Source: Capsulimonadaceae bacterium (GTDB lineage: Bacteria; Armatimonadota; Armatimonadia; Armatimonadales; Capsulimonadaceae). From it: a stretch of 64,000 nt of DNA. Every line of letters begins with the position of its first letter. Position 1 is the first letter of the stretch. This document shows positions 6,203 through 60,308 of the stretch, in pieces. The notes under the pieces were generated by a model, which did not search any database, was not told the origin of the DNA, and worked only from the letters and a program-made list of their open reading frames with translations. A program made the translations under genes and the position numbers. The stretch is from NCBI GenBank assembly GCA_965215505.1, contig OZ244065.1, positions 3,456,001 through 3,520,000 on the forward strand. The letters run 5' to 3'.

Positions 6203-6337
6203 GACGAGTGATTGAAATCACTCGCTCCGGTTAGGATTTGTCCAAGGGACAAGAGGAGGGACCCGGATGGGACCGGCGTGTCCCTCTTCTGTTCCCTGGA
6301 CAGGTCTGGCAGGAGCGAGTGATTTCAATCACTCGTC
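6203..6337. repeat. Family-A REPIN-like element, copy 1
   Basis: CGAGTGATTGAAATCACTCG ... CGAGTGATTTCAATCACTCG with inner TGTCC/GGACA arms; between convergent genes. Confidence 0.9.
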
Positions 6338-6373
6338 CGCGTCCGGCTCCCCGCGTCGTTGGGGACGGGGGCA

Positions 6374-7039
6374 TCATGCCCGCTCCCCAGGCCGCCGCAG
6401 CAGGTACAGGGCCGGGCCGAGCAGGGGCACGGCGAGGGCCGCCCGGCCTATCCCGTCCTCGGCGGGGACGCCGCGCCGGGCCATGTCGTCGCGCAGCAGG
6501 GCGGGGAAGAGGAGCGTCAGCACCAGCAGATCCACGGTCATCAGGTGGACGAAGGCGCTGCGGCGGAACCAGTAGACGTAGTCCGGCAGGCTGCCCGCGC
6601 CGAAGATGAGCGCCAGCAGGGCGGCCAGGACCAGCGCGGCGGACACGGCGAAAGGCCGCCCGCCGAACCAGCGGACGAGGAGGGAACGCGGGCCGGGGAG
6701 GGGGTCGGGGTAGGGGCGGCGCAGGATGAGGTACGGCAGCAGGGCGAATGACCCCAGCGCCATCATCCCAAGCGCGAAGGGCCACACCCACAGCCACGCC
6801 GGGCCGGGCCGCTGCCCGCGCCCGTCCGGCACCATCAAGGCCCAGTACATCAATGGGACGATGCCGAGGAGCTGGAAGACGCCCCAGACGGCCGGGTTCC
6901 GGGCGGGACCCCGGCCCATCGCCAGGCTCATGAAGGTGACGCCGGGCGGGTCGGAGTGCGGCGCGGCGAAGGCGGCATAGGCGATGTAGGCGGCCAGCAG
7001 GAGGGCGTACCCGAGGCGGCGCAGGAGATCAGGGGGCAT
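6374..7039 (-). CDS. Integral membrane protein (DUF2834-like)
   Basis: Several TM segments; WPFALGMMALGSFALLPYL, FVHLMTVD, VPLLGPALYL. Confidence 0.7.
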   Translation of the reverse strand: MPPDLLRRLGYALLLAAYIAYAAFAAPHSDPPGVTFMSLAMGRGPARNPAVWGVFQLLGIVPLMYWALMVPDGRGQRPGPAWLWVWPFALGMMALGSFALLPYLILRRPYPDPLPGPRSLLVRWFGGRPFAVSAALVLAALLALIFGAGSLPDYVYWFRRSAFVHLMTVDLLVLTLLFPALLRDDMARRGVPAEDGIGRAALAVPLLGPALYLLRRPGERA

Positions 7040-7064
7040 GATCGTAAGTGTACCCCAGCCGCAA

Positions 7065-8828
7065 TCAGTCGCCCCGTTCGGGCGCACCCAGCAGGCCGAC
7101 CGCGCCGTCGAGCGCCGCGCGCCACTTCCAGCCCTGGAGAGTGAAGGTGACGCGCTGGCAGCCGCCGTCCGGATCCATCGCCAGCCAGGCCGTCCATTGG
7201 GCGTCCCCCAGGCGCAGGCGGCGGACCGCCTTGAGCGTGTCAGAGTCGCCGCTCGCCCGCCTGCCCTGGTCGTCCAGCAGCGCGGACAGGGCGCGGAAGT
7301 CGCCGAGGGCGACCAGGTCCGCCTGCTGCGCGCCCGCCGGGAGCTGCAAGGCGGGGTGCCCCGAGGGCGCGCGGAGCCAGTCCGGGTCCGAGCCGAAGGA
7401 GAGCCACCGCGCGCCAGGCTCCCAGCAGGGGCAGAGGGAGTAGCCCTGGGAGGGGGAATATGTCTCCTCCTTCGCCAGCCGGAACAGCCCGCCGTCCTTG
7501 CGGACCGGGTCGCCCTGACGACGCACCCACCCGGTCAGGTCGGCGGCGGCCTTTTGGGGGGCATCGGGGCCGTCCGCCTCGGCGGCGGCCACCGCCCCGA
7601 AGCCCCGGCCGGGCTGCCAGCTCACCCCCGCCCCGCACTGGCCGGTGAAGCGGCGCAGCGAGTCTTGCAGCGGCCCCGCCTGCGCCAGAGTCCGCTCGAA
7701 CTGCGCGCGCTGGTCGGCGTCCAGCGACTCCTCCGCCAGCGCCCGCGCGCGCGCCCACCAGCCGCTCGGGTCGTTGACCAGCAGGGCCGCGCCGGTCGAG
7801 TCGGGCAGCCGCGCCAGGGCCGCGCCGGTCACCGGCTGCGAGTCGCCCTTCAGCCTGCGCCAGAAGGCCCGCCCCGCCTCGGTCGTGGGGCAGGCGATGG
7901 TGTCAAGCTCCAGGCCCTCCCCTTTGTCCGAGAGCGCGCTGACCGTGATGTTCTGCGCGTAGGGCTTGTCCGCCCAGGCGCGCGTGGCCTCGGAGGACGC
8001 GAAGGGGGAGGACGAGGCCAGCGCGCCGGTGTCGGCCCCCGACCACAGGACGGGGGCGGCCGGCATCCGGCCCAGCGCCTTCTTCCAGGCGGGGTTCGAG
8101 GCCAGGGACGGCGTCCGCCCCGTCCAGGCATCCAGGGCCTTCTCCTCGGCCCCGTCCCCGATCCCGACGACGATCCAGCCGCGCACGAAGCCGCCCTTGA
8201 TGGTCAGGGCCGGGCCGTCCGAGGTGGGCGTCGTGGTCCCTTGCAGCGAGACGCCGTCGTGGGAGCTGTCCGTCCACGCCCCGCCCTTCCCCTGGGAGGC
8301 CGCACGGGAGCGCAGGCGCGACAGGCAGCGCGCGAAGGCGGCGTAGTCGCGCACCCGCGCGCAGACCACGATCTGCGGGCGGCGGGCGTCCGCCCGCAGC
8401 ACGGCCACCGCCACCTGGCCGACCCAGGGCGCGACGTCGTCTTCAAAGGAGAGGCCGGCCTCCTTTTCGGCCCGCGCGATGGCCTCCCGGACCGGCGGCT
8501 GTGCGCGCAGGCTCGCGCTCGTCCGCCACCACCAGGGCGTGTCCACGCTGACGATCGCGGCCGTGTCGGCGGGCAGCAGCGCCTCCAGCGGCGGCGACTG
8601 GTGCCACCAGGCATACGCCCCGCCGAGGACGCCCAGCAGCAGCAGCGCCCCCAAGGCCGCCCACAGCCGCCGGCGCGGCGGGCGCCTGGCGGCCTTCGCC
8701 TCGACGGCGGGCGGGTCCGAGACGTTCGGAGCGGGGACGTTCGGGTCCGGGAGGGTCAGCGGCTCGCCGCACCGGCGGCAGAACGCCGCCCCGTCCCGGC
8801 GCTCGGTCTCACAGACGGGGCAAGACAT
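7065..8828 (-). CDS. Zinc-ribbon, single-TM protein with large extracytoplasmic (DUF3352-like) domain
   Basis: CPVC..FCRRCG, TM helix, LLPADT, FEDDVAPWVG. Confidence 0.65.
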   Translation of the reverse strand: MSCPVCETERRDGAAFCRRCGEPLTLPDPNVPAPNVSDPPAVEAKAARRPPRRRLWAALGALLLLGVLGGAYAWWHQSPPLEALLPADTAAIVSVDTPWWWRTSASLRAQPPVREAIARAEKEAGLSFEDDVAPWVGQVAVAVLRADARRPQIVVCARVRDYAAFARCLSRLRSRAASQGKGGAWTDSSHDGVSLQGTTTPTSDGPALTIKGGFVRGWIVVGIGDGAEEKALDAWTGRTPSLASNPAWKKALGRMPAAPVLWSGADTGALASSSPFASSEATRAWADKPYAQNITVSALSDKGEGLELDTIACPTTEAGRAFWRRLKGDSQPVTGAALARLPDSTGAALLVNDPSGWWARARALAEESLDADQRAQFERTLAQAGPLQDSLRRFTGQCGAGVSWQPGRGFGAVAAAEADGPDAPQKAAADLTGWVRRQGDPVRKDGGLFRLAKEETYSPSQGYSLCPCWEPGARWLSFGSDPDWLRAPSGHPALQLPAGAQQADLVALGDFRALSALLDDQGRRASGDSDTLKAVRRLRLGDAQWTAWLAMDPDGGCQRVTFTLQGWKWRAALDGAVGLLGAPERGD

Positions 8829-8868
8829 GGGGGCTACTCCTTCGCGTCAACTCCTTCGCGTCAGCGGT

Positions 8869-9552
8869 TCAGCGCGCACCGGCGGCCTTCCGCCGCCGCA
8901 CCGCCATGGCCCCGCCGCCCAGGGCCAGCAGCAAGCCGAGCGACAGGGCCGGGGACGCCTCGGGAACCGGGGCGGGCGTCACCGTCAGGCCGTTCGCGCC
9001 GGGCGGGGCGGGCTGCGGCGTCAGGCTGCCGTCCGGGTTGACCGAGATGTCCAGGACCGAGCCATCCGGGTTGTTGCTCAGGAGCTGGCTGCCGGAGTTG
9101 TCGAACAGCGTGAAGGCGAACAGGCTGCCCACCGGCGTCGGGTCGGGGCTGGTGAACGTGAGGGCGAAGCTGAGGGTTGTGCCGAACGTGACCCCCTGGA
9201 AAACCTCGTTGATGCCGGGGCTGTTGCTGATCCCCAAGGTCCCCGGCAGCGCCCCCGTCGCGCTCCCGCTGTCCGAGGACGCCCCCACCAGGGTGCCGTT
9301 CGTGGTGAAGCCCGTGACCTGCACGGACGCCGTCGACGTGCCGCTGCCGCCGGGGTTGAACTGGAAGTCCAGCCCGCCGGACGTGGTGTTCAGCGTGCGG
9401 GTGTTCAGGGTGACCAAATAGCGCGTCTGCGCCTGGGCCGCCGCCCCCAGGGTCAGGAGACCCAGCGCGCCGAGGGCCGAAGCCACCAGCGCCGCCGCCG
9501 ATGTCCGGCGGCGTGCCGCAGGCTTATCGGCCGTATGTCGTGATTGCTGCAT
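8869..9552 (-). CDS. PEP-CTERM sorting-domain protein (DFQFNPG type)
   Basis: Signal peptide; C-terminal VPEASPALSLGLLLALGG..RRRK. Confidence 0.85.
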   Translation of the reverse strand: MQQSRHTADKPAARRRTSAAALVASALGALGLLTLGAAAQAQTRYLVTLNTRTLNTTSGGLDFQFNPGGSGTSTASVQVTGFTTNGTLVGASSDSGSATGALPGTLGISNSPGINEVFQGVTFGTTLSFALTFTSPDPTPVGSLFAFTLFDNSGSQLLSNNPDGSVLDISVNPDGSLTPQPAPPGANGLTVTPAPVPEASPALSLGLLLALGGGAMAVRRRKAAGAR

Positions 9553-9564
9553 GGTGCATTCCTT

Positions 9565-11808: not shown

Positions 11809-11887
11809 GGCGTCCTCCTGAGTAGTGGCCGCACTCCTGCGGCCTGGATGTCTGACGGGGATCGGGGAAGAGCCGGGAGGCCGCCGC

Positions 11888-12115
11888 CTAGAGTGTGTTT
11901 TCCAAATGCGAGAGTATTCTGAGAATTTTCCTCGTGAATCTCGCTCTTGACAGTATGCTTGCCCACCAAAACGGGTTCCTGTGACGGTCACAGCGCGCTC
12001 CGGCGAGTTTTCGCGGGGACTCAATGCCTCCGAAGGCGCTCCGGGGCTTGTAGAGCCTCCGAGTTTTGCGAGAAAATCCGCCTCTCACAGAAGCGATTTG
12101 GAAAACACACTCTAG
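11888..12115. mobile_element. MITE, 228 bp, perfect 20-bp terminal inverted repeats, CTAG at both ends
   Basis: CTAGAGTGTGTTTTCCAAAT ... ATTTGGAAAACACACTCTAG; lower GC than flanks; no transposase. Confidence 0.85.
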
Positions 12116-12814
12116 CGCGTCCGCCGCGCGGAGGCGGCGCAGGGCCACGGCCCCGCCGCCCAGGGCCAGCAGCAGGCCCAGAGAAAGGGCCGGGGACGCT
12201 TCGGGCACTCCCGGCATCGTCACCGTCAGCGCCGTCGAGCTGGACACGAGCGTCTGACTCCCGCCGGGGTTGATCATGATGTCCAGGACGGAGCCGTCCG
12301 GGTTGACACCCAGCAGCGTTTTCGTCCCCGAGGCGTCGTACAGCGAGAAGGCGAACGTACTCCCCGCCCCCTTCCCCGTGGGCGCGGTGATCGCCGGGCC
12401 GGAGAAGGTAGTGAAGAAGCTGAGGGTGCTGCCGAAGGTGATGCCCTGGAACACATCGTTGTTGCTGCCGATGTTGGCGAGGGTCAGCGTCCCCGGCAGC
12501 GTGCCCGCGCCGCCGCCGGTGTCCTGGGCCGTCCCGGCCAGTGTGCCGGTCGTGGTGAAGCCGGTGACCTGGAGCAGGGCGTTCTGGGAGTCCGGCCCGC
12601 CGGGGTCGAACGCGAAGTCGAGGTTGCCCGCCGTGCCGGCCAGCGAGGAGGTGTCCAGGGTGATTTTATACTGTTGCGCTTGGGCCGCCGTCCCCAGCGT
12701 CAAGCTGCCCAGCGCGCTGAGGGCCAAAGCCCCCAGCATCAGGGCGGACATGAACGGCGTCGTGCGGCGGGTCGGCGTGCGGCGGCGCGTCTCGCGGCGT
12801 ATCAGGGGTGTCAT
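11888..12814 (-). CDS. PEP-CTERM protein (paralog of 8869-9552) reading through the MITE
   Basis: LDFAFDPGG, VPEASPALSLGLLLALGGG..RRLR, then ~75 MITE-encoded residues. Confidence 0.8.
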   Translation of the reverse strand: MTPLIRRETRRRTPTRRTTPFMSALMLGALALSALGSLTLGTAAQAQQYKITLDTSSLAGTAGNLDFAFDPGGPDSQNALLQVTGFTTTGTLAGTAQDTGGGAGTLPGTLTLANIGSNNDVFQGITFGSTLSFFTTFSGPAITAPTGKGAGSTFAFSLYDASGTKTLLGVNPDGSVLDIMINPGGSQTLVSSSTALTVTMPGVPEASPALSLGLLLALGGGAVALRRLRAADALECVFQIASVRGGFSRKTRRLYKPRSAFGGIESPRKLAGARCDRHRNPFWWASILSRARFTRKILRILSHLENTL

Positions 12815-12861
12815 GCTTGTCTTCCTTCTCTGTCTTCTCTATCTTCCTTCTCTGTCTTCCT

Positions 12862-15093: not shown

Positions 15094-15188
15094 GTCGTCC
15101 TCCTCGGAACGCCGCAGTCGCACGGCGGGAGCGATGCCCTGGGGCGTCCTCGGTGACTGAAGATCGTAGCTTTGGTACATTTGTTTCC

Positions 15189-15205
15189 TGCATGATCCAT
15201 GCCAA
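15189..15205 (-). promoter_or_regulatory. sigma54 -24/-12 promoter
   Basis: Minus strand TTGGCATGGATCATGCA (GG-N10-GC) with an AT-rich tract upstream. Confidence 0.65.
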
Positions 15206-15338
15206 AGCAGGTATTTTTATATGGAAAATAATATATATTTTCGGGCGACGACGTGGCTGAAACGGGGAGCAGGTTTGCGTCCCGGCGTATGGGCCGGGCG
15301 CGTGTGGGGGAGGCCAATCGGCCCCGGCCTACGGCAGC

Positions 15339-15537
15339 CCCGGCGCTAAACCGCCGGCCTACACAGATGGGCCGCCCACTTTGGGGCTTCGGAAAGAGAA
15401 CGCGGCAGGACGAAGAGGGCGCGGCAAGCGGTGCCCCTACAAACTTGGATGATGCCATCCATAGCCCCGAAGGGGCGGCCCACCGGCGGAGCCAGGAGTA
15501 CCCCAATGAAACCCTAGACCGGCCCTTCAGGGCCGGG
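15339..15537. repeat. Family-B inverted-repeat element enclosing a GTAG-type REP
   Basis: CCCGGCGCTAAACCGCCGGCCTA arm and TAGACCGGCCCTTCAGGGCCGGG arm; inner GGGCGCGGCAAGCGGTGCCCCTAC. Confidence 0.85.
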
Positions 15538-15633
15538 GACTGCGCGGGTCGGGGACTGCGCGCGCCCAGACCAACGCAGCGAGGTGCCTCTCCCGCCAGC
15601 AGTCCGGCAGCGGCAATCGGGTACACTGTCCGC

Positions 15634-18564: not shown

Positions 18565-18579
18565 TCCTCCCCCCCGGCC

Positions 18580-19710: not shown

Positions 19711-19973
19711 GGGGTGGGCCTTTCTAGGGCGGGGAGAACAGGTTTTGGATTGGGAGAACGATAGCCCCTTCTTCCCGGCGGGGGGTGGAGGGTAAACGCG
19801 GGGCGGGCGCGGAAACCCAGATGTGGAGCGTCCAGTCCGTCCGCCCCGGCGCGAGGACGCACCCGGCCCTTCAGGGCCGGGATCTGGTGGGCCGGGACCC
19901 ACACGCCGGGCTAGGCTTTTGCGGCAAGTCTAGTGTATAATATGCCTAGCAAAGAGCAAAGGAAACCCGACCC

Positions 19974-29375: not shown

Positions 29376-29519
29376 CGAGTGATTGAAATCACTCGCTCCG
29401 GTCGGACCTGTCCAGGGGACAGAAGAGCGCCCCGCTCCTTGCCTTTCCGGCTTGTCCCCTTCCTTCCGGCTTGTCCCCTGGACAAATCCCAAGTCAGCGA
29501 GTGATTTCAATCACTCGTC
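29376..29519. repeat. Family-A REPIN-like element, copy 2
   Basis: Same terminal hairpins; GGACCTGTCCAGGGGACAG / TTGTCCCCTGGACAAATCC arms. Confidence 0.9.
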
Positions 29520-32567: not shown

Positions 32568-33434
32568 ATGACACTTTCCGAAGCCCCAAACGGGCGGCCC
32601 ATCCGTGTAGACCGGCGGTTCAGCGCCGGGTCCGTCTGCGCCAGCGCCCTCCTCCTGCTCGCCCTGTCTCCCCTGCGGCCCGCGCGGGCCGACGCCCCAG
32701 CCGCGCCCCCCACCAAACCGGCGGCCCACTTCCCGGCCCTGGCTCCCGATGCCTCGGGCCGCGTCGGGGCGGGGACGCCCTTGCAGAATGTCCACCGGAT
32801 CGTCTGCCTCGGCGACAGCATCACGCAGTTCGGCGAAGGCCCGAACGGCTACGTCGGCCTGATGCGGGCTTATCTCGCTCAGGCGTACCCACAGAACGGC
32901 TTCGAGGTCGTCAACGCGGGCGTTTCGGGCAACACCTCGAACGACGAACTGGGCCGCTTCGACCGGGACGTGCTGCAAAAGAAGCCCGACCTGCTCACCG
33001 TCAGCGTCGGCGTCAACGACGTCTGGCACGGCTTCAATTCCAAGTCCCCGCAGGGCGGCGGGCCGGGCGGCGTCGCGCTCCCCGTCTACCGCGCCAACGT
33101 CGAGAAGATGGTGACGGAGGCTCAGGCGCGGGGCATCGAGGTCGTCCTGCTGTCCCCCACCGTCATCGGCGAGGACCTGAACGACCCGCGCAACGCCCTA
33201 GCGACGGGCTACCTCGCGGCCCTGCGGGACATCGCCCGCCGCCACAAGTGCCTGTTCATAGACATGCGCGGCCCCTTCCAGACGTATCTCGACCTGTACC
33301 GCACCACCGGCCACACCGACAACCTGCTGACCGGGGACGGCGTCCACATGAACGACTGGGGCAACCGCCTGATGGCCGCGACCATCCTGTCCGCCCTGCT
33401 GGCCCCCGCCCCCAAGGGCGTGACGCTGTTATAG
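32568..33434 (+). CDS. Secreted SGNH/GDSL hydrolase
   Basis: GDSIT, NAGVSG, GVND, DGVH; N-terminus overlaps a family-B arm (32577-32630). Confidence 0.9.
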   Translation: MTLSEAPNGRPIRVDRRFSAGSVCASALLLLALSPLRPARADAPAAPPTKPAAHFPALAPDASGRVGAGTPLQNVHRIVCLGDSITQFGEGPNGYVGLMRAYLAQAYPQNGFEVVNAGVSGNTSNDELGRFDRDVLQKKPDLLTVSVGVNDVWHGFNSKSPQGGGPGGVALPVYRANVEKMVTEAQARGIEVVLLSPTVIGEDLNDPRNALATGYLAALRDIARRHKCLFIDMRGPFQTYLDLYRTTGHTDNLLTGDGVHMNDWGNRLMAATILSALLAPAPKGVTLL

Positions 33435-34641: not shown

Positions 34642-34773
34642 GACGAGTGATTAAAATCACTCGCTCCTGTCGGACCTGTCCAGGGGACAGAAGAAGGAGA
34701 GGGCGCTGCCGTCCATGTCGCTCCCCTTGTCCCCTGGACAAATCCGGCGGCAGCGAGTGATTTCAATCACTCG
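34642..34773. repeat. Family-A REPIN-like element, copy 3
   Basis: Left loop TAAA variant; spacer identical to copy 4. Confidence 0.9.
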
Positions 34774-36555: not shown

Positions 36556-36610
36556 ACCGGCCATGAATGGCCGGCCTACTCCTGAGTGAAAACCCCTCCG
36601 GGGTTGGGGA
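36556..36610. repeat. Family-D repeat arm
   Basis: ACCGGCCATGAATGGCCGGCCTACTC..AACCCCTCCGGGGTT; near match to reverse complement of 60252-60308. Confidence 0.8.
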
Positions 36611-36974: not shown

Positions 36975-37108
36975 GACGAGTGATTGAAATCACTCGCTCC
37001 TGTCGGACCTGTCCAGGGGACAGAAGAAGGAGAGGGCGCTGCCGTCCATGTCGCTCCCCTTGTCCCCTGGACAGGTCCGGCGGCAGCGAGTGATTTCAAT
37101 CACTCGTC
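36975..37108. repeat. Family-A REPIN-like element, copy 4
   Basis: Near-identical to copy 3; between convergent genes. Confidence 0.9.
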
Positions 37109-40560: not shown

Positions 40561-40726
40561 CCCGGCGCTAAACCGCCGGTCTATACGGATGGGCCGCCCG
40601 CTTCGGGGCTTCGGACAGCATGATGCCCGGAGGGGGGATTAAAGAGGGCGGGGGAACCCCGCCCCTACGCGGCCCGGATGATGCCGCCAATGACAGCGTC
40701 CCTGTAGGGGCCGGGTTTCCCGGCCC
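40561..40726. repeat. Family-B arm followed by a GTAG REP pair
   Basis: CCCGGCGCTAAACCGCCGGTCTA..GCTTCGGGGC; REPs at 40646-40668 and 40704-40726. Confidence 0.8.
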
Positions 40727-41595: not shown

Positions 41596-41751
41596 GACGA
41601 GTGATTGAAATCACTCGCTTCGCTCTGGACCTGTCCAGGGGACAGAAGAGGGGGCAGGAGGGGCGAGGCAGAGGAGGCCGGTCCTGTCCCTCTGCTCCGC
41701 TCCCTTGTCCCCTGGACAAATCCGGCGGCAGCGAGTGATTTCAATCACTCG
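41596..41751. repeat. Family-A REPIN-like element, copy 5
   Basis: Same terminal and inner arms; between convergent genes. Confidence 0.9.
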
Positions 41752-49236: not shown

Positions 49237-49259
49237 CGCGTTGATTAGGCCCGCAAGAA

Positions 49260-49470
49260 CCCGGCCCTGAAGGGCCGGTCTAAGGTTTCATTGGGGTATT
49301 CCCGGCTCCGCCGGTGGGCCGCCCCTTCGGGGCTGAGGACAGGAGGGCAGAAAAGAGGTCACGGCGGGGGAAAGAGGTCGCGGCAAGCGGCGCCCTACGA
49401 GGCCTGAACGATGCCGTCCGAAGCCCCGAAGGGGCGGCCCATCCGTGTAGACCGGCGGTTCAACGCCGGG
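49260..49470. repeat. Family-B element enclosing a GTAG REP
   Basis: CCCGGCCCTGAAGGGCCGGTCTA..GCCCCTTCGGGGC / GCCCCGAAGGGGC..GTAGACCGGCGGTTCAACGCCGGG. Confidence 0.88.
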
Positions 49471-51299: not shown

Positions 51300-51326
51300 A
51301 CCGTCTCCTACGGGTTGACGGTGAAG

Positions 51327-51455
51327 GGGCGTGATGAATCACGCCCTTCTTTCTGCCCCCCTTCCGGCATGGGAGAACAGGGCGCAGAGGGGAGAACAGG
51401 GCGCGATGAATCGCGCCCCTACGCAAGAAGGGCGCACACGCAGGTGCGCCCCTAC
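51327..51455. repeat. Cluster of three GTAG-type REPs
   Basis: GGGCGTGATGAATCACGCCC, GGGCGCGATGAATCGCGCCCCTAC, GGGCGCACACGCAGGTGCGCCCCTAC. Confidence 0.75.
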
Positions 51456-52492: not shown

Positions 52493-52503
52493 GGCATTAC
52501 CTC

Positions 52504-53418: not shown

Positions 53419-53424
53419 GCCGCC

Positions 53425-53453
53425 ATTATAGCCGCTCGGGGAAATGAAGTCAA
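53425..53453 (-). promoter_or_regulatory. sigma70 promoter, leaderless
   Basis: TTGACT-17-TATAAT, 6 nt before the ATG. Confidence 0.75.
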
Positions 53454-53618
53454 GAAAGCGGGCCTACGCGGCCGGCGTGAACCCACCCCGGCGCAAGCGC
53501 CGACCCTCCCGCCCCTGCTCGCAGGGCCTCGGCAGCGGGTACAACGGGAGGGTGGGGTGGGAAGGTGGTTGGGGGGTTTGGTGAGATGATTGGGGGGTGG
53601 GGCGGTTAAGGGGTGGGT

Positions 53619-54133
53619 TCACGCCAGCCGCCCCAGCACTTCCTCCCAGCGGGCGCTATCGAAGCGCACCTGCCAGGCGAAGGGCCGGCCCTTGCGGTCG
53701 TAATAGACGGCCATCGCCGACTTCGCCACATGGCGCGGCTCGGTCGCCAGCAGTTCCCCGCAAGGCCCGCGTCCCGCACATAGGCGACCGCGTGCTTGCC
53801 GCTCATGCGCCAGGCCCGCCCGCCCTCGCCGGTGAAGTAGGCGGCAGGAGTCTCGGCCACGGCGCGGGCCGGGGCGGGTGCCTTGGCCGGGGCCTTGAGG
53901 GGCGGCTTGGGCGTCGCGGGCGGCTTGACGGCCACGGGCGGCTTGGCGGGCGGGGCCGCCTTCACGGGGGCGGGCGCTTTGACGGCGGCGGGCGCTTTGA
54001 CGGCGGCGGGGCGCTTGGCGGGCGCGGGGGCCGGCATGTCGGAAAAGAGGTCAAGGACGGCGGGCCTCTCGGCGGTCTTGATCTCGGCGGTCTTGATCTC
54101 GGCGGTCGTCTTGGCGGGCGGCGTCTTTCTCAT
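53619..54133 (-). CDS. Hypothetical Pro/Ala/Lys-rich protein with a probable frameshift near 53757
   Basis: ATGA overlap with upstream gene; one extra base gives ..GELLATEPRH..AVYYDRKGRPFAWQVRFD..LA*. Confidence 0.55.
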
Positions 54134-54612
54134 GGGCGGTGTCCTCGGAAGCGGGTTTGCCGATTCGCGTTCGGCTTCGGGTTCGTTTTGGCATTTTTCG
54201 GCGCGCGCAGCAGGGCGGGCAGGTCGGCGGCGGGGAAGGCCAGCCAGATCTGCACCCCCGCCCACTCGGGCCGCAGGGAGTAGGACGCTTCCGCCCCGGC
54301 CTCCGCCGTGACCGAATCCCCCGTGACGACGGGGCCGCCGGGGAGGGCGGCCAGCCGCGTCCGCAGATACCGGCACAGGTCGGGCGCGTCCGGCCCGACG
54401 ACGCGGAACCGGGCGGAGACGGCGCGGGCGGGCGGCGTCGCCAGGGCGGTCTTCTTCTGGGCGGCAAGCTCCGCGCGCCAGGCCCGCTCGAACAGCCGCG
54501 CCCGGTCATTGCCCCGGCCCGCCGCGAGGGGGACGTCGAAGCGCAGCTCGCAGGTGGCGTCCGGCGGCCGGGAGGCGTCTGAGGCTAGGGTCTGGTCCAG
54601 GGTGTCCGGCAT
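54130..54612 (-). CDS. Hypothetical protein
   Basis: GC3-biased ORF directly behind a consensus promoter. Confidence 0.65.
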   Translation of the reverse strand: MPDTLDQTLASDASRPPDATCELRFDVPLAAGRGNDRARLFERAWRAELAAQKKTALATPPARAVSARFRVVGPDAPDLCRYLRTRLAALPGGPVVTGDSVTAEAGAEASYSLRPEWAGVQIWLAFPAADLPALLRAPKNAKTNPKPNANRQTRFRGHRP

Positions 54613-54618
54613 GGCACC

Positions 54619-54648
54619 ATTATAGCAAACAAATGTTTGCCCTGTCAA
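54619..54648 (-). promoter_or_regulatory. Consensus sigma70 promoter with palindromic operator in the spacer
   Basis: TTGACA-18-TATAAT; GCAAACA-TT-TGTTTGC at 54625-54640. Confidence 0.75.
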
Positions 54649-54741
54649 GCGGGAGTTTCGGGGCGTTTTGGGGGGTGGCGGCGGGGGCATGAGCGAGGGC
54701 GGCGGGGGGGGGCAGGACGACGAGAGGTGAGGACGAGTGAG

Positions 54742-54907
54742 GACGAGTGAATGAATTCACTCGCTGCCGCCGGACCTGTCCAGGGGACAGAGGAAAGAGT
54801 GGACAAGAAGGCGCGAGGGGACAAGCAACGGCAGCCCACCCCTGCCTGACCCGCTTCACTGTCCCCTGGACAGGTCCGAGAGGAGCGAGTGATTTCAATC
54901 ACTCGTC
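54742..54907. repeat. Family-A REPIN-like element, copy 6 (downstream of tnpA)
   Basis: Left CGAGTGAATGAATTCACTCG, right CGAGTGATTTCAATCACTCG. Confidence 0.9.
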
Positions 54908-54947
54908 CTTACCCGCTCGTCCTTACCCGCTCGTCCTCACCCGCTGC

Positions 54948-55373
54948 TCACCTCTCGTCGTCCTCCGGCGAGGGTTCCCACTCCTTCCACAGATCGCCCG
55001 CCGCATGGTGGCTCTCCTGATTCTGGACATAGGCCCGCACGCGCGGGACGTCGGCAGGGCTGACGGTGGTTCCGTCGTAGCCCTCCTGCCACTTCAGGAA
55101 CAGCGTCACGGGGAGGAGGCCGTTCGCATAGCGGGCGGAGACGCCTTTGGCCTGTTTCACCGCCTGCGCCGGGGCGAGCGTACTCGGCATCTCCAGGAGC
55201 AGATGCACATGGTCGGGCATCCCGCCCAGGGCGAGTACGGTACACCCCATCTGGCGGCACTCGTGATGGATGCAGCCGTAAACCAGCGGCTTCCACTCCG
55301 GGACTAATACGTCTTCACGCCTCTTCGTGGCCCAAACGAAGTGTGAATAGAGTTGCGTCCTGCTTCGCGGCAT
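54948..55373 (-). CDS. tnpA: IS200/IS605-family HUH (Y1) transposase, candidate REP-associated (RAYT-like)
   Basis: HFVWATKRR, GGMPDHVHLL (HUH), KGVS, WQEGY, YVQNQESHH; RBS AAGGAGG; no tnpB. Confidence 0.92.
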   Translation of the reverse strand: MPRSRTQLYSHFVWATKRREDVLVPEWKPLVYGCIHHECRQMGCTVLALGGMPDHVHLLLEMPSTLAPAQAVKQAKGVSARYANGLLPVTLFLKWQEGYDGTTVSPADVPRVRAYVQNQESHHAAGDLWKEWEPSPEDDER

Positions 55374-55428
55374 TTGTTCCCCCTCCTTAGGAGTCAAGCC
55401 AGGTCAAGCGATGTCAGGCGGGCATCAG

Positions 55429-55551
55429 GACGAGTGAATGAATTCACTCGCTATGTGCGGACCTGTCCAGGGGACAGAAGACCCGTCCCCGACCACCTAT
55501 TCCCTTGTCCCCTGGACAAATCCTGCGTCAGCGAGTGAATTCATTCACTCG
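55429..55551. repeat. Family-A REPIN-like element, copy 7 (upstream of tnpA)
   Basis: Both ends carry the CGAGTGAATGAATTCACTCG variant. Confidence 0.9.
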
Positions 55552-55600
55552 TTCGTTCCCTTGCTCGTTCATTCCCTTGCCGGTTCATTCCCCTCCCCTC

Positions 55601-57409
55601 TCACCGCACCCGCACCGTGACCACCATTGGCGGGGCGGATGCGGGGAAGGTGAGGGTGCGCGTCACCGTCCGGCCCCGCGCGTCCGTCACGGTGACGCGG
55701 TAGTCGCCGTAGAAGACGCGGCAGGTCAGGGACCCGCGCGCGTCGGCCTTCCCCGTGTCATCTGTCCACCACTGTTTGTGGATCAGGCCCAGCAGGCGCG
55801 TGTAAGCGGGCTTGGGGGTCATGTCCTTCCGCACCAGGCCCGCCGGGGCACCCTGCCAGGCGTTCCGGTCGCTGAAGTCCCACCAGGTGATCGCGCGGAC
55901 GGACGGGTGGCTGAACAGGACGCTGTAGAACTGCGCGACATAGTCGGCCTGCTTCGCCTCGCCTGCGGGCGTCGTGTCCCAGCCGGTCAGGGTGGCGTTG
56001 GTCGGGTTGTCCCGGCGCGGGCCGCTGAGGACGGTGGTTTCGGTGAAGTGGAGGGGGCGGCCGAACTGGGCGAAGGTCTGGCAGACGGCCCAGACCTTGG
56101 TGAGCGGCCACTCGCCGGTGTGCATGTGCGACTGGAGGCCGACGACGTCGGGCAGCTTGCCGTCCTTCTGGAGCTTGGTGAGCAGGGCGACGTTGCTCTC
56201 GCCGGTGTCGTAGTCGTTGTAGAGGAACGTCTCCGGCAGGCCCCGCCCCGCGTCGCGCGCCCAGCCCAGGGCGGTTTCGACGACGGGGGCGGGTCCGTCG
56301 CGCTTGATCCAGTTGGCCTCGCCGTTCGGGGGCGTGTGGCCCGCCGCGCCGTTGGCCTCATTCAGCACGTCCCAGACGTGGATGGTGTCTTTGTACCGGG
56401 GGACCAGGTCAAGAACGCGGGCGTGGAGCAGGGGGATGGCGGCCTCCGGGTCGGTCGGTGCCCAGCCGGGCCAGACCTCGTGCCAGACCAGCGGGTGGCC
56501 CTTGACGACGACGCCATGGGCGACGCTCCACGTTGCCAGCGTTTGCAGGCGGGCGTAGTCGGGTTTGCCCTGGGCGCTTTCAAACGCGCCCCAGTAGAAG
56601 GGCAGGGTGGCGTAGTTGAGCAGGCCGGTGAACTCGGCCTGGTACGCGCGCTGGGCCGGCGAGGCATCGGCGGGGTCCAGGCCGAAGAAGTTGCAGCCGA
56701 ACAGGAAGGCGTGGCGCGTCTGGGCCAGATGGATGGATACGCCCGGCACGGGTTTCCCCTGGGCGTCCACGACCCGGACGGTCAGTGTCCCCTTGCGGTA
56801 CTTCTCGATGCGCGCCTTGATGGCGGCGGGCTGGAGGGCGGCCTGGGCGGCGGCGATGGCGGGGTCCAGGCCCTCGTCGGTGACACTGATCTGCATCAGG
56901 TCCACGGTCCCCGCCGACTGGCCCATCTGGAGGTGGGCGTTCAGGCCGTAGCCGGGGGCGACGCCGCTGATGGAATAGGTCTGCCACTGCGGGGTCAGGG
57001 TGAAGGTCTGCACGGCGGCCGGGTCATAGGGGGGGCCGTTGCGCTCGACGGTGGCGCGCAGCGGGTTGCGGGTGGCCGAGCGCGCCCAGAAGGTCAGGCG
57101 GACGCGGTGGCCTTCGGGGATGACGGCGGGGATGTCTCGGGTGATCTGGACGAGGTAGAACGGGTCGGACGGCGTCTTGACGGTGACGCGCAGCAGGGGC
57201 GGGTCGCCGTCGGTGAGCGGGACGGTCGAGAGCGCGGCGTCGCCGGGGCGGGGGGCGCTGAGGGACCATTCGCCCGGCGCGAGCAGGTCCCCCGAAGCGG
57301 GCGGGGCGGCGGGCGCGGCGTAGGCGGGGAGTGTGCGGGAGAAGAACGGGAGGAGCAGGAGGAGAAGGCTGAGAAGGCGGTGGGCGGGCAGGCGGGACGG
57401 CGGTGTCAT
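55601..57409 (-). CDS. GH10 endo-1,4-beta-xylanase with N-terminal CBM4/9-like domain
   Basis: KGHPLVW, WDVLNE, YNDY, GLQSH, HFTE, TWWD. Confidence 0.9.
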   Translation of the reverse strand: MTPPSRLPAHRLLSLLLLLLPFFSRTLPAYAAPAAPPASGDLLAPGEWSLSAPRPGDAALSTVPLTDGDPPLLRVTVKTPSDPFYLVQITRDIPAVIPEGHRVRLTFWARSATRNPLRATVERNGPPYDPAAVQTFTLTPQWQTYSISGVAPGYGLNAHLQMGQSAGTVDLMQISVTDEGLDPAIAAAQAALQPAAIKARIEKYRKGTLTVRVVDAQGKPVPGVSIHLAQTRHAFLFGCNFFGLDPADASPAQRAYQAEFTGLLNYATLPFYWGAFESAQGKPDYARLQTLATWSVAHGVVVKGHPLVWHEVWPGWAPTDPEAAIPLLHARVLDLVPRYKDTIHVWDVLNEANGAAGHTPPNGEANWIKRDGPAPVVETALGWARDAGRGLPETFLYNDYDTGESNVALLTKLQKDGKLPDVVGLQSHMHTGEWPLTKVWAVCQTFAQFGRPLHFTETTVLSGPRRDNPTNATLTGWDTTPAGEAKQADYVAQFYSVLFSHPSVRAITWWDFSDRNAWQGAPAGLVRKDMTPKPAYTRLLGLIHKQWWTDDTGKADARGSLTCRVFYGDYRVTVTDARGRTVTRTLTFPASAPPMVVTVRVR

Positions 57410-57498
57410 GGGAAAGTCTCCGGGGGAATGAGATTCGCGTGAAGGGCGGCATGACGCGGTCATGTCGCCTGATGCTCGGTGCGGCGGCTGCATCGGAG

Positions 57499-57670
57499 CG
57501 CCACGGGTTGAAACCCGAGGCTGACAAAAGCCCACTGTCGAAGCGACGTTAAGACAAAGACGCAGAGCGGAGACGCAGGGCAGAACGGAGCGACTGCACC
57601 CGACTGGCTGCCCGGAGGGCAGACCTGGAAGGCGGCGGGCTTTTTGCGCCTCGGGTTTCAGCCCGTGGTG
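57499..57670. repeat. Family-E inverted-repeat element
   Basis: CCACGGGTTGAAACCCGAGG..AAAAGCCC / GGGCTTTT..CCTCGGGTTTCAGCCCGTGG. Confidence 0.75.
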
Positions 57671-57857
57671 TTCTGAGGCGATGGGTCTTCTTCCGCCTCC
57701 ATCCGCTGCCGGTACTTCTCTACGCCCGCCATGACCGCGTCCAGAAAGGCAAGATCATTGCGGAAACTGCCCATGACCGAGGCGAGCGGGTGCGGCTCGG
57801 TAGAGGGGGCCGCCCGACATCATTCTCCGTGTCCTTGTCGCCGGTTTGTGCTGCCAT
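57658..57857 (-). CDS. Small hypothetical protein, probably frameshifted
   Basis: RBS GGAG + MAAQTGDKD.. joins ..EPHPLASVMGSFRNDLAFLDAVMAGVEKYRQR with one added base. Confidence 0.4.
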
Positions 57858-57903
57858 GCTGTCTCCACAAGGCGTTGCCCCGTGCGTCCCGGCGCGGGCG
57901 TGT

Positions 57904-58242
57904 CCCGGCCCTGAAGGGCCGGTCTAAGGTTTCATTGGGGTATTCCCGGTTTCGCCGGTGGGCCGCCCCTTCGGGGCTTCGGATGTTGCTGCCGGACAAT
58001 GCTGGCCGGGCTTCGTAGGGGCGGGGTCCCCCCGCCCTCTTTGTCCTTCGCCTTTTTTGTCCTGTCGCGCCCTCGACGGGGGGCGGACAAGGAGAGGAAG
58101 GGGAAGAAGGAGGGCGGGGGGACACCGCCCCTACGCGGTCCGAATGATCCGAATGATGCCATCCGAAGCCCCGAAGCGGGCGGCCCACCGGTGGAGCCGG
58201 GAATACCCCAATGAAACCTTAGACCGGCCCTTCAGGGCCGGG
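57904..58242. repeat. Family-B element (two ~80-bp arms) enclosing a GTAG REP doublet
   Basis: Arms 57904-57983 and 58162-58242; GTAGGGGCGGGG.. at 58015 and ..GCCCCTAC ending 58134. Confidence 0.9.
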
Positions 58243-58327
58243 TCTGATCCGGCCGGTGGCTTAACGCCGGGTCGCATTGCCGCTACTATACCACATCCCG
58301 CCCGCTTTACGTCCGGAACAAGACGCG

Positions 58328-58357
58328 GAAAGGGCCTGCCGCGCGGCAGGCCCTTTC
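58328..58357 (-). terminator. Intrinsic terminator
   Basis: GAAAGGGCCTGCC-GCGC-GGCAGGCCCTTTC downstream of the 58387-58980 gene. Confidence 0.65.
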
Positions 58358-58386
58358 GTGTCGTCGTCCTTCGGCATCGGGCGGCG

Positions 58387-58980
58387 TCAGCGGCGGTCGG
58401 CGTGGTCCTGGCTGTCGCGGCGCTGGTCGCGGCGCTGGTCCGGGCGGCTGTTCCAGTCGTGGCGCTGGCCGTCGCCGTTCCGGTCGTCGCGGCGGGCGTC
58501 GCCGTTCCAGCCGCCCTGGCCCCGGTCGCGGTTGTCCTGGGGGCGGTTTTCATAAGACCTGTCGCCGCCGCGCCACTGGCCGCCGTCGCTGCTGTAGCTG
58601 CCGCCACCGTTGTAGTAGCCGGCCCCATTGCCGTTGTCGTAGGTCCGGTGGTAACGCTGGCCGCCGTTGCGGCCGTCGTAGTTGCGGCCGTCGTAGTTGC
58701 CGCCGCCATAGTAGCCGCCGTTGTAGTAGCCGTTGTCCGACGACTGCCGCTGGCGGACGTTCTCGTACTGGCTGCCGGCGATGACCGCGCCCGCCGCGCC
58801 CAGGACGGTGGCGGTGTTGTTGTGGGTGAGCAGGCCGTAGCCCGCCACGGCGGCCCCGGCGATGGCGAGGTTCCGCAGGTTGTTCTTGTCGCCCTGCTGG
58901 TCGGCCAGGACGGGCGCGGAGACGGTGGCGGCCAGGGTCGCGAGCAGTCCCAGAGTGGTATATTTGGTGGTGCGTGTCAT
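58387..58980 (-). CDS. Secreted glycine-zipper-like protein with G/Y/N/D/R-rich tail
   Basis: Signal peptide; LAIAGAAVAGYGLL..TVLGAAGA; low-complexity tail. Confidence 0.75.
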   Translation of the reverse strand: MTRTTKYTTLGLLATLAATVSAPVLADQQGDKNNLRNLAIAGAAVAGYGLLTHNNTATVLGAAGAVIAGSQYENVRQRQSSDNGYYNGGYYGGGNYDGRNYDGRNGGQRYHRTYDNGNGAGYYNGGGSYSSDGGQWRGGDRSYENRPQDNRDRGQGGWNGDARRDDRNGDGQRHDWNSRPDQRRDQRRDSQDHADRR

Positions 58981-59088
58981 TTCAGTAGGCCCTTCTTATG
59001 TGTCTCCCGCCGCGAACCGGGGGGAAGTCGGTGTTATCTGCAAGACGGCAGGCCGATTAGGATTGTTCCCGGCCTCCGTTGCCGGCCT

Positions 59089-60015
59089 CTAGGGATACCG
59101 GGCCAGCAGCCGCCGCGCCTGCGCCGCCGTGGCCGCATCGCCATGCGCGCTGACCTCCGACCATTCGCGCCGCGCATCCGCCTTCTGGCCGTCGGCGTAG
59201 AGGGCGATGCCCAGGTGCAGGCGCGCGGCGGCATCATTCGGGTCACGGGCGAGGACGGCGCGGAAGGCGGCGACCGCTTCGCGCAGGCGGCCCGCGCGGG
59301 CCAGGGCGAGGGCTGTCGCCGTAGGGGCGCCGCTTGCCGCGCCCTCCCCCCTTGCCGCGCCCTCCGTATTCCCCGGCGCGGCGGGAGGGGAGGGCGCAGG
59401 GGGAACAGGGGCATGGCGGGACAAAGAGGGCGCGGCAAGCGGCGCCCCTACGGCAGGGACGGGCAGGGCGCGGAGGGCCTGGGCGGCTTCGGCGAAGTCC
59501 GGCTTCAGGCGCAGGGCCTCGCGGTACTGGGCGGCGGCCTCGCGTCGGCGGCCGGCGTCGGCCAGGGCACCGGCGAGGTTGAAATGCAGGCGCGGGTCGG
59601 CGGGGTCGAGCGCGAGGGCCAGCCGGTACTCGGCGAGGGCGGAGGCGCTCTCGCCCCGGTCTTCCAGCAGGCCCGCCAGGGCGTTGTGCGCGGGGGCGTC
59701 GTTTGGGCGCAGGGCGACCGTCCTCCGGTACTCGGCCAGTGCTTCGCCCATCTGCCCCGCCGCCTCCAGGACGCCGGCCAGGGCGGAGTGCGCGGCGGCG
59801 TCGGCGGGGCGGAGGCGGACGGCGGCCCGGTACTCGCGGGCGGCGACGAGCGGCAGGCCCGCGCGCAGGGCGGTCTGCCCGGCCTGGAGGTGGGCGAGGA
59901 AGGGGTCGGGCGGGGCCTTCGCCTCGGACGCGCTCTGCGCCAACACGGGGGCGGCGAGCAGCAGGAGCAGGGCAGGAGAGAACAGGCGCAGGAAGAGCGG
60001 GGCGGGGCGTGTCAT
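59089..60015 (-). CDS. Secreted TPR protein with a REP-derived linker
   Basis: AHSALA, AHNALA, LHFNLA, ARLHLG TPR units. Confidence 0.85.
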   Translation of the reverse strand: MTRPAPLFLRLFSPALLLLLAAPVLAQSASEAKAPPDPFLAHLQAGQTALRAGLPLVAAREYRAAVRLRPADAAAHSALAGVLEAAGQMGEALAEYRRTVALRPNDAPAHNALAGLLEDRGESASALAEYRLALALDPADPRLHFNLAGALADAGRRREAAAQYREALRLKPDFAEAAQALRALPVPAVGAPLAAPSLSRHAPVPPAPSPPAAPGNTEGAARGEGAASGAPTATALALARAGRLREAVAAFRAVLARDPNDAAARLHLGIALYADGQKADARREWSEVSAHGDAATAAQARRLLARYP

Positions 60016-60050
60016 GGGGTCATCATACCCCGGCGGGGCGCTGGAGAGGC

Positions 60051-60308
60051 ACCGGCCATGAATGGCCGGCCTACTCTTGCATCTAAGTCGCTCCGCGACT
60101 GAAGACAGGGCGGACAGGAAGGGCGAACACAGGAAGGGCGAACACAGGAAGGGCGAACACAGGAAGGGCGAACACAGGAAGGGCGAACACAGGAAGGGCG
60201 AACACAGGAAGGGCGAACACAAGGTTCGCCCCTACGACCTGTGCGTCTGCAATCTCCAACCCCGGAGGGGTTTCCACTCGAGGAGTAGACCGGCCATTCA
60301 TGGCCGGT
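60051..60308. repeat. Family-D element enclosing an amplified GTAG REP half-arm array
   Basis: ACCGGCCATGAATGGCCGGCCTAC / GTAGACCGGCCATTCATGGCCGGT; GGGCGAACACAGGAA x6 at 60121-60210. Confidence 0.88.

Follow-up and report, generated by a model that had tools for sequence, protein, structure and literature searches.

The hairpins that recur along the genome of a Capsulimonadaceae bacterium (GCA_965215505.1) are best explained, with a probability of about 0.7, as REP/REPIN-type repeats that a Y1 (IS200-like) enzyme binds, cuts, and moves or copies as doublets. Small Y1 genes reside between matching hairpins, which makes mobile repeats tied to an IS200-like subclass the most likely identity of these short palindromes, which are mostly extragenic and present in high copy. 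The window analyzed comprises 64,000 nt (contig OZ244065.1, positions 3,456,001-3,520,000, forward strand) and contains the following features.

6205-6335: family A doublet (CGAGTGAT-TGAA), 131 bp, between convergent genes
15339-15537: family B doublet; variant arm (CCCGGCGC-TAAA) at 15339-15361, B arm at 15515-15537
19862-19881, minus strand: single family B hairpin without CT foot
29376-29517: family A doublet, 142 bp
32608-32630, minus strand: single B-variant hairpin (CCCGGCGC-TGAA-CCGCCGGT-CTA)
34644-34773: family A doublet, 130 bp; near-identical copy at 36977-37106
36556-36578, plus strand: single family D hairpin (ACCGGCCA-TGAA-TGGCCGGC-CTAC)
36977-37106: family A doublet, 130 bp; near-copy of 34644-34773
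40561-40583, plus strand: single B-variant hairpin, TAAA loop; near copies at 15339 and 32608
41598-41751: family A doublet, 154 bp
49260-49282, plus strand: family B hairpin, followed by inner GCCCC-TTC-GGGGC hairpins; inverted arms at 49301-49455
51399-51422, plus strand: single family G hairpin (GGGCGCGA-TGAA-TCGCGCCC-CTAC), a GTAG-tagged REP type
54744-54905: family A doublet adjoining the 3' end of the Y1 gene
54948-55397, minus strand: Y1 (HUH) transposase gene (L004), 149 aa, with HVH, WQ and YVQNQESHH; subclass-1.2-like
55431-55551: family A doublet adjoining the 5' end of the Y1 gene
57501-57668: family E doublet (CCACGGGT-TGAA-ACCCGAGG), conserved A.A mismatch, right arm degenerate
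57904-58242: family B doublet, 339 bp; 65-nt arms 95% complementary
60051-60308: family D doublet, 258 bp; centre a 15-nt tandem array plus a GGGCGAAC-ACAAG-GTTCGCCC-CTAC REP

A sequence-only reading of this DNA had proposed four repeat families with one structural code. All of the outer hairpins that it quoted are in the window (family A, 15 matches at ≤2 mismatches; B, 6; D, 3; E, 2; shuffled sequences, 0 each), as are its five inner hairpins (CTGTCC-AGG-GGACAG, GCCCC-TTC-GGGGC, AACCCC-TCC-GGGGTT, AGTCGC-TCC-GCGACT and CTGCCC-GGA-GGGCAG). Neither outcome that this reading had named as refuting it was obtained: spacing, loop and foot are kept in larger samples (a genome-wide pattern search and genome G032), and a link to Y1 genes exists. 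The number of families rises from four to at least ten. Defining a hairpin as an 8-nt stem with ≤1 mismatch and a T[GA]AA(A) loop, 5-nt TGAAA loops included, we found 698 in the 6.18-Mb genome, 573 of them accounted for by ten stem families. Perfect hairpins with an 8-bp stem and a 4-nt loop number 769 genome-wide; the loop is TGAA/TTCA in 293 and TAAA/TTTA in 31. In a set of 32 hairpin types, of which 20 come from this genome and 12 from relatives, every one of the 8 stem positions varies with compensation, and 94.5% of cells are paired compared to 38-44% when the partner arm is slid, the former value being inflated because the types were preselected for ≤1 mismatch. Family hairpins fall inside crudely predicted coding sequence in 108 of 573 cases, on a coding map that spans 77% of the genome.

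The hairpins are arranged in half-elements of ~55 nt, each consisting of an outer hairpin (8 stem positions, T[GA]AA loop, CT foot facing inward), a 5-20-nt spacer and, in most arms, an inner hairpin whose stem is usually GTCC...GGAC. Two inverted half-elements form a doublet of 117-350 bp. Neighbour pairs genome-wide are overwhelmingly oriented with feet inward (191 '+-', against 10 outward '-+', 13 '++' and 5 '--'), and inverted halves also enclose small Y1 genes, so in its layout the doublet is a 'hairpin - Y1 gene - hairpin' unit without the gene. A hairpin lies on the inner side of 187/198 outer hairpins in family A, 34/40 in A2, 44/54 in E, 39/47 in D, 34/49 in B, 25/34 in H and 8/9 in F; in these families hairpins on the outer side are far rarer, from 1/49 (B) up to 10/54 (E). 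Family G is single, with no excess of inner hairpins (27 inner vs. 20 outer, n = 78), and its single hairpins show no significant orientation bias relative to the replication arms (one arm: 20 '+', 12 '-'; other arm: 15 '+', 21 '-').

Several details of the proposed code hold for part of the families. The TRAA loop is common to the 698 hairpins but is not universal, as the same genome has GTAG-tagged REPs with other loops, and families with 8-bp stems and CTAC feet have non-TGAA loops. Eight-nucleotide stems describe the general plan, but families E, C and H and the B variants have 6-7 bp plus conserved mismatches. Inner loops of 3 nt, as claimed, are seen in families A, A2, B, D and E, whereas F, H and I have inner loops of 4 nt. 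The foot reads CTAC (GTAG on the other strand) in families G, D and B, CTAG in A2 and C, CT[GC][CA] in A and CTT in H, I and F; AG/CT is the sole general part of the tag (557 of 698 hairpins). Partial copies of the 5' stem arm occur in tandem, and the 5-7 nt directly after CT are hypervariable.

A PF01797 profile search recovered six loci in the genome, of which four form one clade whose members have diverged (38-42% identical) yet retain HUH, the tyrosine and open reading frames. Each is flanked by its own stem family: F at L002, C at L003, A at L004 (in the window) and A2 at L005. A degenerate fifth copy (X3), which has lost HUH, lies between family D hairpins. Convergent hairpin pairs of the same family spaced 594-808 bp apart enclose a Y1 gene of this clade in 5/5 cases, and a 993-bp family B pair contains an unrelated secreted-protein gene. 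The suggested pairing of families with tnpA paralogs is borne out for four intact genes and one degenerate copy, but families B, E, G, H and I (224 hairpins) are without a cognate Y1 gene in this genome. As an association the link between hairpins and HUH enzymes holds, each of the five Y1 paralogs having its own stem family; that the enzymes read, cleave and mobilize the hairpins is inferred. The suggestion that one HUH clade reads the geometry, possibly with paralog-specific stems, is partly supported by these associations, but the TGAA loop also occurs with class-2 RAYT-like genes: X1 and X2 belong to this other Y1 class, which is accompanied by TGAA-loop family G and by GTAG-tagged REPs with 3-6-nt loops. 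The REPs flanking X1 and X2 have loops other than TGAA and share their GGGCG stem type with family G.

The clade proteins contain DH[VI]H, WQ and Y---Q--HH and pass the IS200 model NF033573 (76.6 and 78.5 bits, cut-off 55). Their best solved (PDB) relatives are IS200-family TnpAs, with no TnpA-REP chain among the solved relatives at E ≤ 0.01. They do not fit the RAYT/TnpA-REP class (Y---NP): the tyrosine motif is Y---Q--HH, and the REP_Tyr_transpos model NF047646 gives scores of 21.4 and 28.1 bits (cut-off 80). By signature (motifs, ~148 aa, low identity between copies, compared with Table 1 of PMC6006769), the clade is TnpA-Y1 subclass 1.2-like.

Of 61 genomes sampled within the order, 51 contain clade members, and a search of 19 other genomes of the same genus gave 3-12 matches in every one. 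Armatimonadota, Chloroflexota and Gemmatimonadota commonly have members of the clade, and its tree also includes cyanobacterial loci. Homologues in other Armatimonadota have the same flanking geometry with different stems. In a 400-kb sample of G032 there are 61 hairpins in several stem families, 44 with a CT foot, and neighbour pairs are again '+-' (21) or '--' (5), with zero '-+' or '++'; the hairpin beside the G032 Y1 gene occurs 61 times in that genome and 35 times in G034. Across 80 homologous loci elsewhere the flanking hairpins are of the T[GA]AA type in 21 and the GNAG type in 40, with none detected in 19, and hairpin type tracks the protein tree with only 2 changes needed. Most loci of the wider clade have only the GNAG-loop hairpin AGTCCGC-GNAG-GCGGACT, identical to the inner hairpin that family F has at L002; what the enzymes recognize in common may therefore be the inner rather than the outer hairpin. 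Across genomes the best conserved part is the inner GTCC...GGAC stem, which recurs beneath different outer stems elsewhere (inner hairpin in 46 of 60 outer hairpins).

Evidence for copying comes from doublets 34644-34773 and 36977-37106, which match at all but 3 positions within unrelated flanks; more doublet pairs combine related centres with unrelated flanks. Near-copies of whole doublets are alike up to the outer hairpin edges and no further, and no target duplication was seen at the ends of related copies. Since the conserved CT lies inside these edges, it is not simply the element's end. The family A hairpin has 162 exact matches here but only 0-1 per genome in 12 others of the same genus, a contrast that suggests recent expansion. 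For 45 of 67 family A doublet centres, however, a second copy is absent, suggesting either that most doublets are old or that the unit is often the half-element instead of the doublet. For none of 190 doublets could an empty paralogous site be found, and the orthologous intergenic regions of relatives, too diverged for this purpose, gave no exact empty site. The Y1 gene of the window is present, with 1-2 letters different, in contigs of four public runs (four studies); these contigs are broken at repeats and gave no clean presence/absence junction.

The mechanism that we propose is drawn from solved or assayed relatives, IS608 and ISDra2 TnpA and TnpA-REP (Corneloup 2021). At a single-stranded DNA stage each strand would fold into hairpins, and the IS200-like Y1 would bind them strand-specifically via unpaired loop bases and stem mismatches, with the conserved inner hairpin as a possible common anchor. 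The invariant AG at the 5' foot would act as a guide selecting the CT dinucleotide for tyrosine cleavage, and cutting and rejoining would move the doublet or make a copy of it, with no duplication of the target. Because of their paralog-specific stems, the families would stay separate.

In an alternative arrangement, the subclass-1.2-like Y1 would read only the inner GTCC...GGAC hairpin and the outer TGAA hairpin would be either a canonical REP read by X1/X2 or a host-selected end structure. The 40 of 80 wider-clade loci with only the family F inner type, the varied outer stems above inner GTCC stems, the canonical CTAC (GTAG) tag of families G, D and B, and the single family G hairpins with their X1/X2-type stem and no inner-hairpin excess would all fit. 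We nevertheless consider it unlikely, as the outer stems track the adjacent 1.2-like paralog and not X1/X2, whose own REPs have other loops, and copies end at the outer hairpin edges.

It is also rather improbable that the hairpins no longer move and are retained mainly for a host function, for example as two-way transcription terminators or stabilizers of mRNA 3' ends, their link to Y1 being historical. They are extragenic, most doublet centres are unique and one Y1 copy is degenerate; moreover, in three genomes of the same genus the orthologous intergenic regions lack the family A doublet placed at 6205-6335 between convergent genes and have plain terminator-like hairpins or another REP instead. 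Such a function would not account for near-identical doublets at unrelated sites, for the excess of family A over 12 same-genus genomes or for four Y1 genes with HUH, tyrosine and reading frames intact, and doublets extend well beyond convergent pairs (40 convergent, 76 tandem, 30 divergent). Ordinary MITEs, moved by a DDE transposase whose full-length IS has the same ends, would likewise have terminal inverted repeats, small size and many copies. Such elements are a very poor candidate here, however, given copy ends at which no target duplication was seen, same-family ends at 594-808 bp between which only Y1 genes were found, and a 993-bp family B pair with an unrelated gene inside.

REP/REPIN repeats with their RAYTs are a textbook case of a domesticated transposase living with non-autonomous repeats, and REPINs were reportedly described in Pseudomonas by Bertels and Rainey in 2011. 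To our knowledge, work on such systems has been confined almost entirely to Proteobacteria and class-2 enzymes. Like those repeats, the hairpins described here are short extragenic palindromes that number in the hundreds and lie mainly in inverted pairs; in both systems a Y1 gene present as a single copy sits amid hairpins of its own family, one genome has several such families and paralogs, and the AG at the 5' foot is invariant. The present hairpins differ in an IS200-like (Y---Q--HH) rather than class-2 (Y---NP) enzyme, a GTAG tag confined to G, D and B, a second, inner hairpin in most arms, and mostly unique doublet centres. Among the REPtron relatives covered in Corneloup et al. 2021 (PMC8266576) are E. 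coli TnpA-REP with BIMEs and group 3 of Stenotrophomonas and Marinomonas; the 8-bp perfect stem and 3-4-nt loop of group 3 REPs resemble those seen here, and SELEX in Marinomonas is described there as showing strong selection at the last two GTAG positions only, with cleavage at CT. According to the same source, IS200/IS605 elements act on single strands and use a 4-nt guide located 5' of the hairpin. IS608 and ISDra2 resemble the present system in a Y1/HUH enzyme of the same fold family, end hairpins and absent target duplication, whereas here the ends are symmetric inverted repeats, the 594-808-bp units have no tnpB and leave no room for one, the gene copies are diverged paralogs rather than near-identical, and gene-less doublets far outnumber genes. 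GTAG REP families, as summarized in Di Nocera et al. 2013 (PMC3733652), have 6-9-bp stems, short loops and dimers 20-100 bp apart with tags inside ('TT' type). Stems, loops, tag-inside dimers and several families per genome are similar here, and G, D and B match the tag; most families, however, keep only AG, and the associated gene is neither RAYT nor TIRYT.

In the subclass listing of Quentin, Siguier, Chandler and Fichant 2018 (PMC6006769), TnpA-Y1 subclass 1.2 appears without REPs or IS features, as proteins of ~148 aa in low copy number with ~36% identity between copies in one genome and with cyanobacterial members. The clade here is similar in motifs (DH[IV]H, WQ, Y---Q--HH), length, low copy number and identity (38-42%), but unlike the subclass as described, its genes are flanked by hairpins amplified genome-wide. 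A tentative, wider possibility is that Y1 enzymes of this type constitute a third, unrecognized REP-mobilizing lineage across at least four phyla that uses a two-part single-stranded DNA address. The conserved inner GTCC...GGAC hairpin would anchor the enzyme; Armatimonadota would add an outer hairpin with a stem private to each paralog, in which the fixed TGAA loop, 8-position spacing and AG/CT foot would set the cut and the element end. The partial 5'-arm copies and the hypervariable nucleotides after CT would then be scars of cleavage and rejoining.

What is new is a probable REP-like lifestyle with an IS200-like subclass listed without repeats. The phylum has been little studied, and its genomes can have as many as a dozen paralogs, with numerous stem families on one plan. 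Canonical GTAG REPs and class-2 RAYT-like genes coexist with the TGAA system in one genome. The matched series of enzymes and hairpins could be used to learn how Y1 enzymes discriminate among hairpins by loop, foot, stem mismatches and inner hairpin.

All of the outer hairpins quoted from the window in the sequence-only reading are present, where zero are expected by chance, and the quoted inner hairpins are readable in the sequence. Each outer hairpin has an eight-position stem, a T[GA]AA(A) loop and a CT foot, and families are defined by the stem. The window holds 15 matches to family A (at ≤2 mismatches), 6 to B, 3 to D and 2 to E, including one variant with a different loop:

40561-40583 (window): B-variant hairpin with a TAAA loop; near copies at 15339 and 32608

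The genome (G000) is a single 6.18-Mb contig with 66.5% G+C. Its perfect hairpins of 8-bp stem and 4-nt loop number 769; of these, 293 have TGAA/TTCA loops and 31 TAAA/TTTA loops. Hairpins were identified by scripted complementarity searches, because a 24-position covariance model is too information-poor for genome-wide E-values. At ≤1 stem mismatch and with 5-nt TGAAA loops included, there are 698 hairpins genome-wide, 557 of them with CT directly 3' of the stem. The four families originally proposed (A, B, D and E) are real, but four is too low a count; ten stem families account for 573 of the 698 hairpins, the others being A2 (stem CGAGTGGT, TGAAA loop), C (stem CCATGCCA and variants), F, G, H and I. 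Comparison of 32 hairpin types reveals compensated changes at all eight stem positions; families E and C have a conserved mismatch at position 3, and family H, as well as I, has an unpaired C.C beside the loop. The family hairpins are extragenic: a crude coding map, spanning 77% of the genome, contains 108 of the 573. A single megabase (G000:C1 3.0-4.0 Mb), within which the window lies (3.456-3.520 Mb), contains 231 of the 573; cumulative GC skew peaks inside it at 3.30 Mb, probably marking the replication terminus. Single hairpins show no clear replication-strand bias.

Neighboring hairpins are arranged as doublets, i.e., two inverted half-elements with feet inward, each comprising an outer hairpin, a spacer and an inner hairpin. 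Genome-wide, 191 neighbor pairs are feet-inward versus 10 feet-outward, 13 ‘++’ and 5 ‘--’, and there are 190 doublets of 117-350 bp. A second hairpin is present on the inner side in most arms (A, 187/198; A2, 34/40; E, 44/54; D, 39/47; B, 34/49; H, 25/34; F, 8/9) and is far rarer on the outer side of the outer hairpin. The 3-nt inner loop, proposed as a fixed feature, holds for A, A2, E, D and B but not for F, H and I, in which the loop has 4 nt (CTKC). From the outside in, a family A half-element reads RGA, outer hairpin, CT, 5-7 highly variable bases and GGAYYTGTCC-ARG-GGACAR.

In family A, the stretch of 5-7 nt that separates the CT foot from the inner hairpin is far more variable than its surroundings, even between doublets with centers that are 91-96% alike. 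Many family A and G hairpins are preceded on the 5' side by tandem partial copies that combine a purine-rich spacer with the initial 7 nt of the 5' stem arm, and a 15-nt array of about 7 copies inside a D doublet is the same feature for a GGGCGAAC-ACAAG REP. In 22 of the 190 doublets the outer flanks are mutually complementary (at least 12 of 20 positions), compared to 0.85% in a shuffled-partner control; the flank sequence differs from copy to copy. Examples are:

54734-54763 and 60100-60215 (window): tandem partial stem-arm copies, also found genome-wide
G000:C1:845865-845998 and 1600800-1600962: doublets with complementary outer flanks

The Pfam Y1_Tnp model identifies six loci in G000. Two are classic IS200/IS605 types (L001 and the broken L006-8), while L002, L003, L004 and L005 form one clade with a mutual identity of 38-42%; the window protein (L004) is 28% identical to L001. 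The clade genes, a degenerate relative (X3) and their flanking hairpins are:

Window 54948-55397, minus strand: L004, Y1 gene and clade member, flanked by family A
L002: Y1 gene, flanked by family F
L003: Y1 gene, flanked by family C
L005: Y1 gene, flanked by family A2
G000:C1:5328943-5329449, minus strand: X3, Y1-clade relative with QMD in place of HUH and an open frame, between family D hairpins

Same-family convergent pairs at a spacing of 594-808 bp number five, and each encloses one of L002-L005 or X3. The L005 unit (594 bp) consists of the gene between single inverted hairpins, with inverted repeats of about 45 nt. The proposal that one clade of HUH enzymes reads the hairpin geometry is partly supported, as an association: the Y1 genes are paired with their own stem families. 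No cognate Y1 gene was found in G000 for families B, E, G, H and I, and a clade profile run over all six-frame ORFs returned nothing beyond X3, the four intact genes and the pair of IS200/IS605-type loci. The sole other same-family pair within 1 kb, a family B pair at 993 bp, surrounds a gene for an unrelated secreted protein and was rejected as a cognate locus. In a broken IS200/IS605-type tnpA (G000:C1:2785554-2786185, minus strand), a tandem repeat multiplies the HVLLQV stretch at the HUH motif.

Against NCBIfam models, the clade proteins score above the threshold for IS200 (76.6 and 78.5 bits, cut-off 55) and below that for RAYT (21-28 bits, cut-off 80), and their best solved relatives are IS200-family TnpAs. 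Their motifs, DH[VI]H, WQ and Y---Q--HH, are the subclass 1.2 signature given by Quentin et al. 2018 (PMC6006769, Table 1), where this subclass is characterized by a length of about 148 aa, low copy number, about 36% identity between copies, the entry ‘REP: no’, and a distribution mostly in Cyanobacteria and Bacteroidetes. Based on motifs, length and copy pattern, the clade proteins appear to be of the subclass 1.2 type. We found no paper in the open-access literature that ties subclass 1.2 to REP-like repeats.

Scanning a single genome of each species recovered 408 relatives. The best 80, which were retained, come from Armatimonadota, Chloroflexota, Gemmatimonadota, some cyanobacteria and others. 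Close to the Y1 gene there is an enrichment of perfect 7-bp hairpins, with about 265 in 54 kb searched at ≤350 nt from the gene and about 83 in 140 kb at >500 nt (the counts are approximate, after subtracting runs of N). Among these best 80 of 408 loci, 21, mostly in Armatimonadota, have class I hairpins (T[GA]AA-type, CT foot) and 40 have class II hairpins (AGTCCGC-GNAG-GCGGACT); flanking hairpins of either class were undetected at 19. The class label changes just twice on an 81-protein tree (quick search, four loci with stops or X dropped, root on a long outgroup branch). At L002 the family F inner hairpin equals the class II hairpin, and elsewhere inner GTCC...GGAC stems occur under many different outer stems, with an inner hairpin accompanying 46 of 60 outer hairpins.

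Clade members are present in 51 of 61 genomes sampled from the order, and each of the 19 further genomes searched in the genus gave 3-12 matches. Exact family A hairpins number 162 in G000, whereas 12 other genomes drawn from the genus have 0-1 each; G021, a further genus member, has diverged family-A-like doublets. The Y1-adjacent hairpin of another Armatimonadota genome, G032, has 61 copies in that genome, 35 in G034, 4 in G035, 8 in G036 and zero in G033. A stem-unbiased survey of 400 kb of G032 recovered several stem families, with neighbor pairs feet-inward or same-strand only. The hairpin GGGCGCGA-T[GA]AA-TCGCGCCC-CTAC has the same stem and foot in G000 and in the G032 sample (L097-L116), although these Armatimonadota are distantly related. 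The small noncoding repeats of Deinococcus, an initial reading of the sequence, were dropped as the nearest relatives pointed to Armatimonadota.

Whole doublets have been copied. Of 67 family A doublet centers, 45 are unique and 22 have a relative elsewhere; in the latter the likeness spans the whole doublet and ends exactly at the outer hairpin edges, with no target duplication seen at the ends. The clearest pair (window 34644-34773 and 36977-37106) differs at 3 of 130 nt, its flanks are unrelated, and further related pairs were found. Joined 45-nt flanks of all 190 doublets gave zero junction-spanning BLAST matches, i.e., no empty sites, within G000. The region around window 6205-6335 was located in 22 of 23 other same-genus genomes; the corresponding intergenic DNA in G011, G012 and G021 is unalignable and carries other hairpins, so no exact empty-site junction is readable there. 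The same convergent gene pair (window 6120-6420; loci L090-L092) encloses four different contents in four same-genus genomes: G000 has an A doublet, G011 a double-foot GTAG REP, and G021 and G012 plain terminator-like hairpins. Contigs from four public runs (four studies) over window 53500-61000 break at repeats, with the listed joints running from repeat copy to repeat copy, and no clean excision form was readable in them. The 22 public runs listed include no RNA data.

A universal TGAA loop was not borne out. A survey of all 8-bp-stem hairpins with any loop uncovered further high-copy families with GGGC-type stems, non-TGAA loops and a CTAC foot, which equals the canonical GTAG tag of REPs; smaller families of this kind are also present. 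These REPs flank two class-2 RAYT-like genes, X1 (motifs NHLH, WQRSYYD and YITHSP) and the truncated X2, and in one case lie inside the gene:

GGGCGAAC-ACAAG: REP hairpin, 76 copies
GGGCGGGG-GGA: REP hairpin, 73 copies
G000:C1:2469221-2469823, minus strand: X1, class-2 RAYT-like gene, flanked by GGGCGGGG-GGA-CCCCGCCC-CTAC REPs

Within X1, one in-frame REP separates the HUH motif from the Tyr motif, and the 5' end of the gene bears a double-foot REP. The X1/X2 system resembles subclass 2.4 of Quentin et al. 2018 (PMC6006769), a subclass described as having intragenic as well as double-foot REPs. Family G (GGGCGCGA-TGAA-...-CTAC) is mostly single, has no excess of inner hairpins and looks like part of this class-2 RAYT-like REP system. 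In G000, then, the 8-position stem with CT foot is general and the TGAA loop is not.

TnpA-REP is described as binding the REP strand only; in Marinomonas the final two GTAG bases are the most important ones, picking the CT that is cut, and in group 3 REPs the loop bases are read (PMC8266576). By analogy, the Y1 enzyme may bind the folded single strand, and the invariant AG foot would guide it to CT, followed by cutting and rejoining. The conserved CT is inside the copied unit, not at its end. Overall, the structural observation of the sequence-only reading is confirmed and extended, and its interpretation is supported as an association and refined. The system is of the REP/REPIN type and thus not categorically new; it is a new variant in three respects, namely the subclass of the enzyme, an arm with two hairpins and the large number of families that follow one plan.
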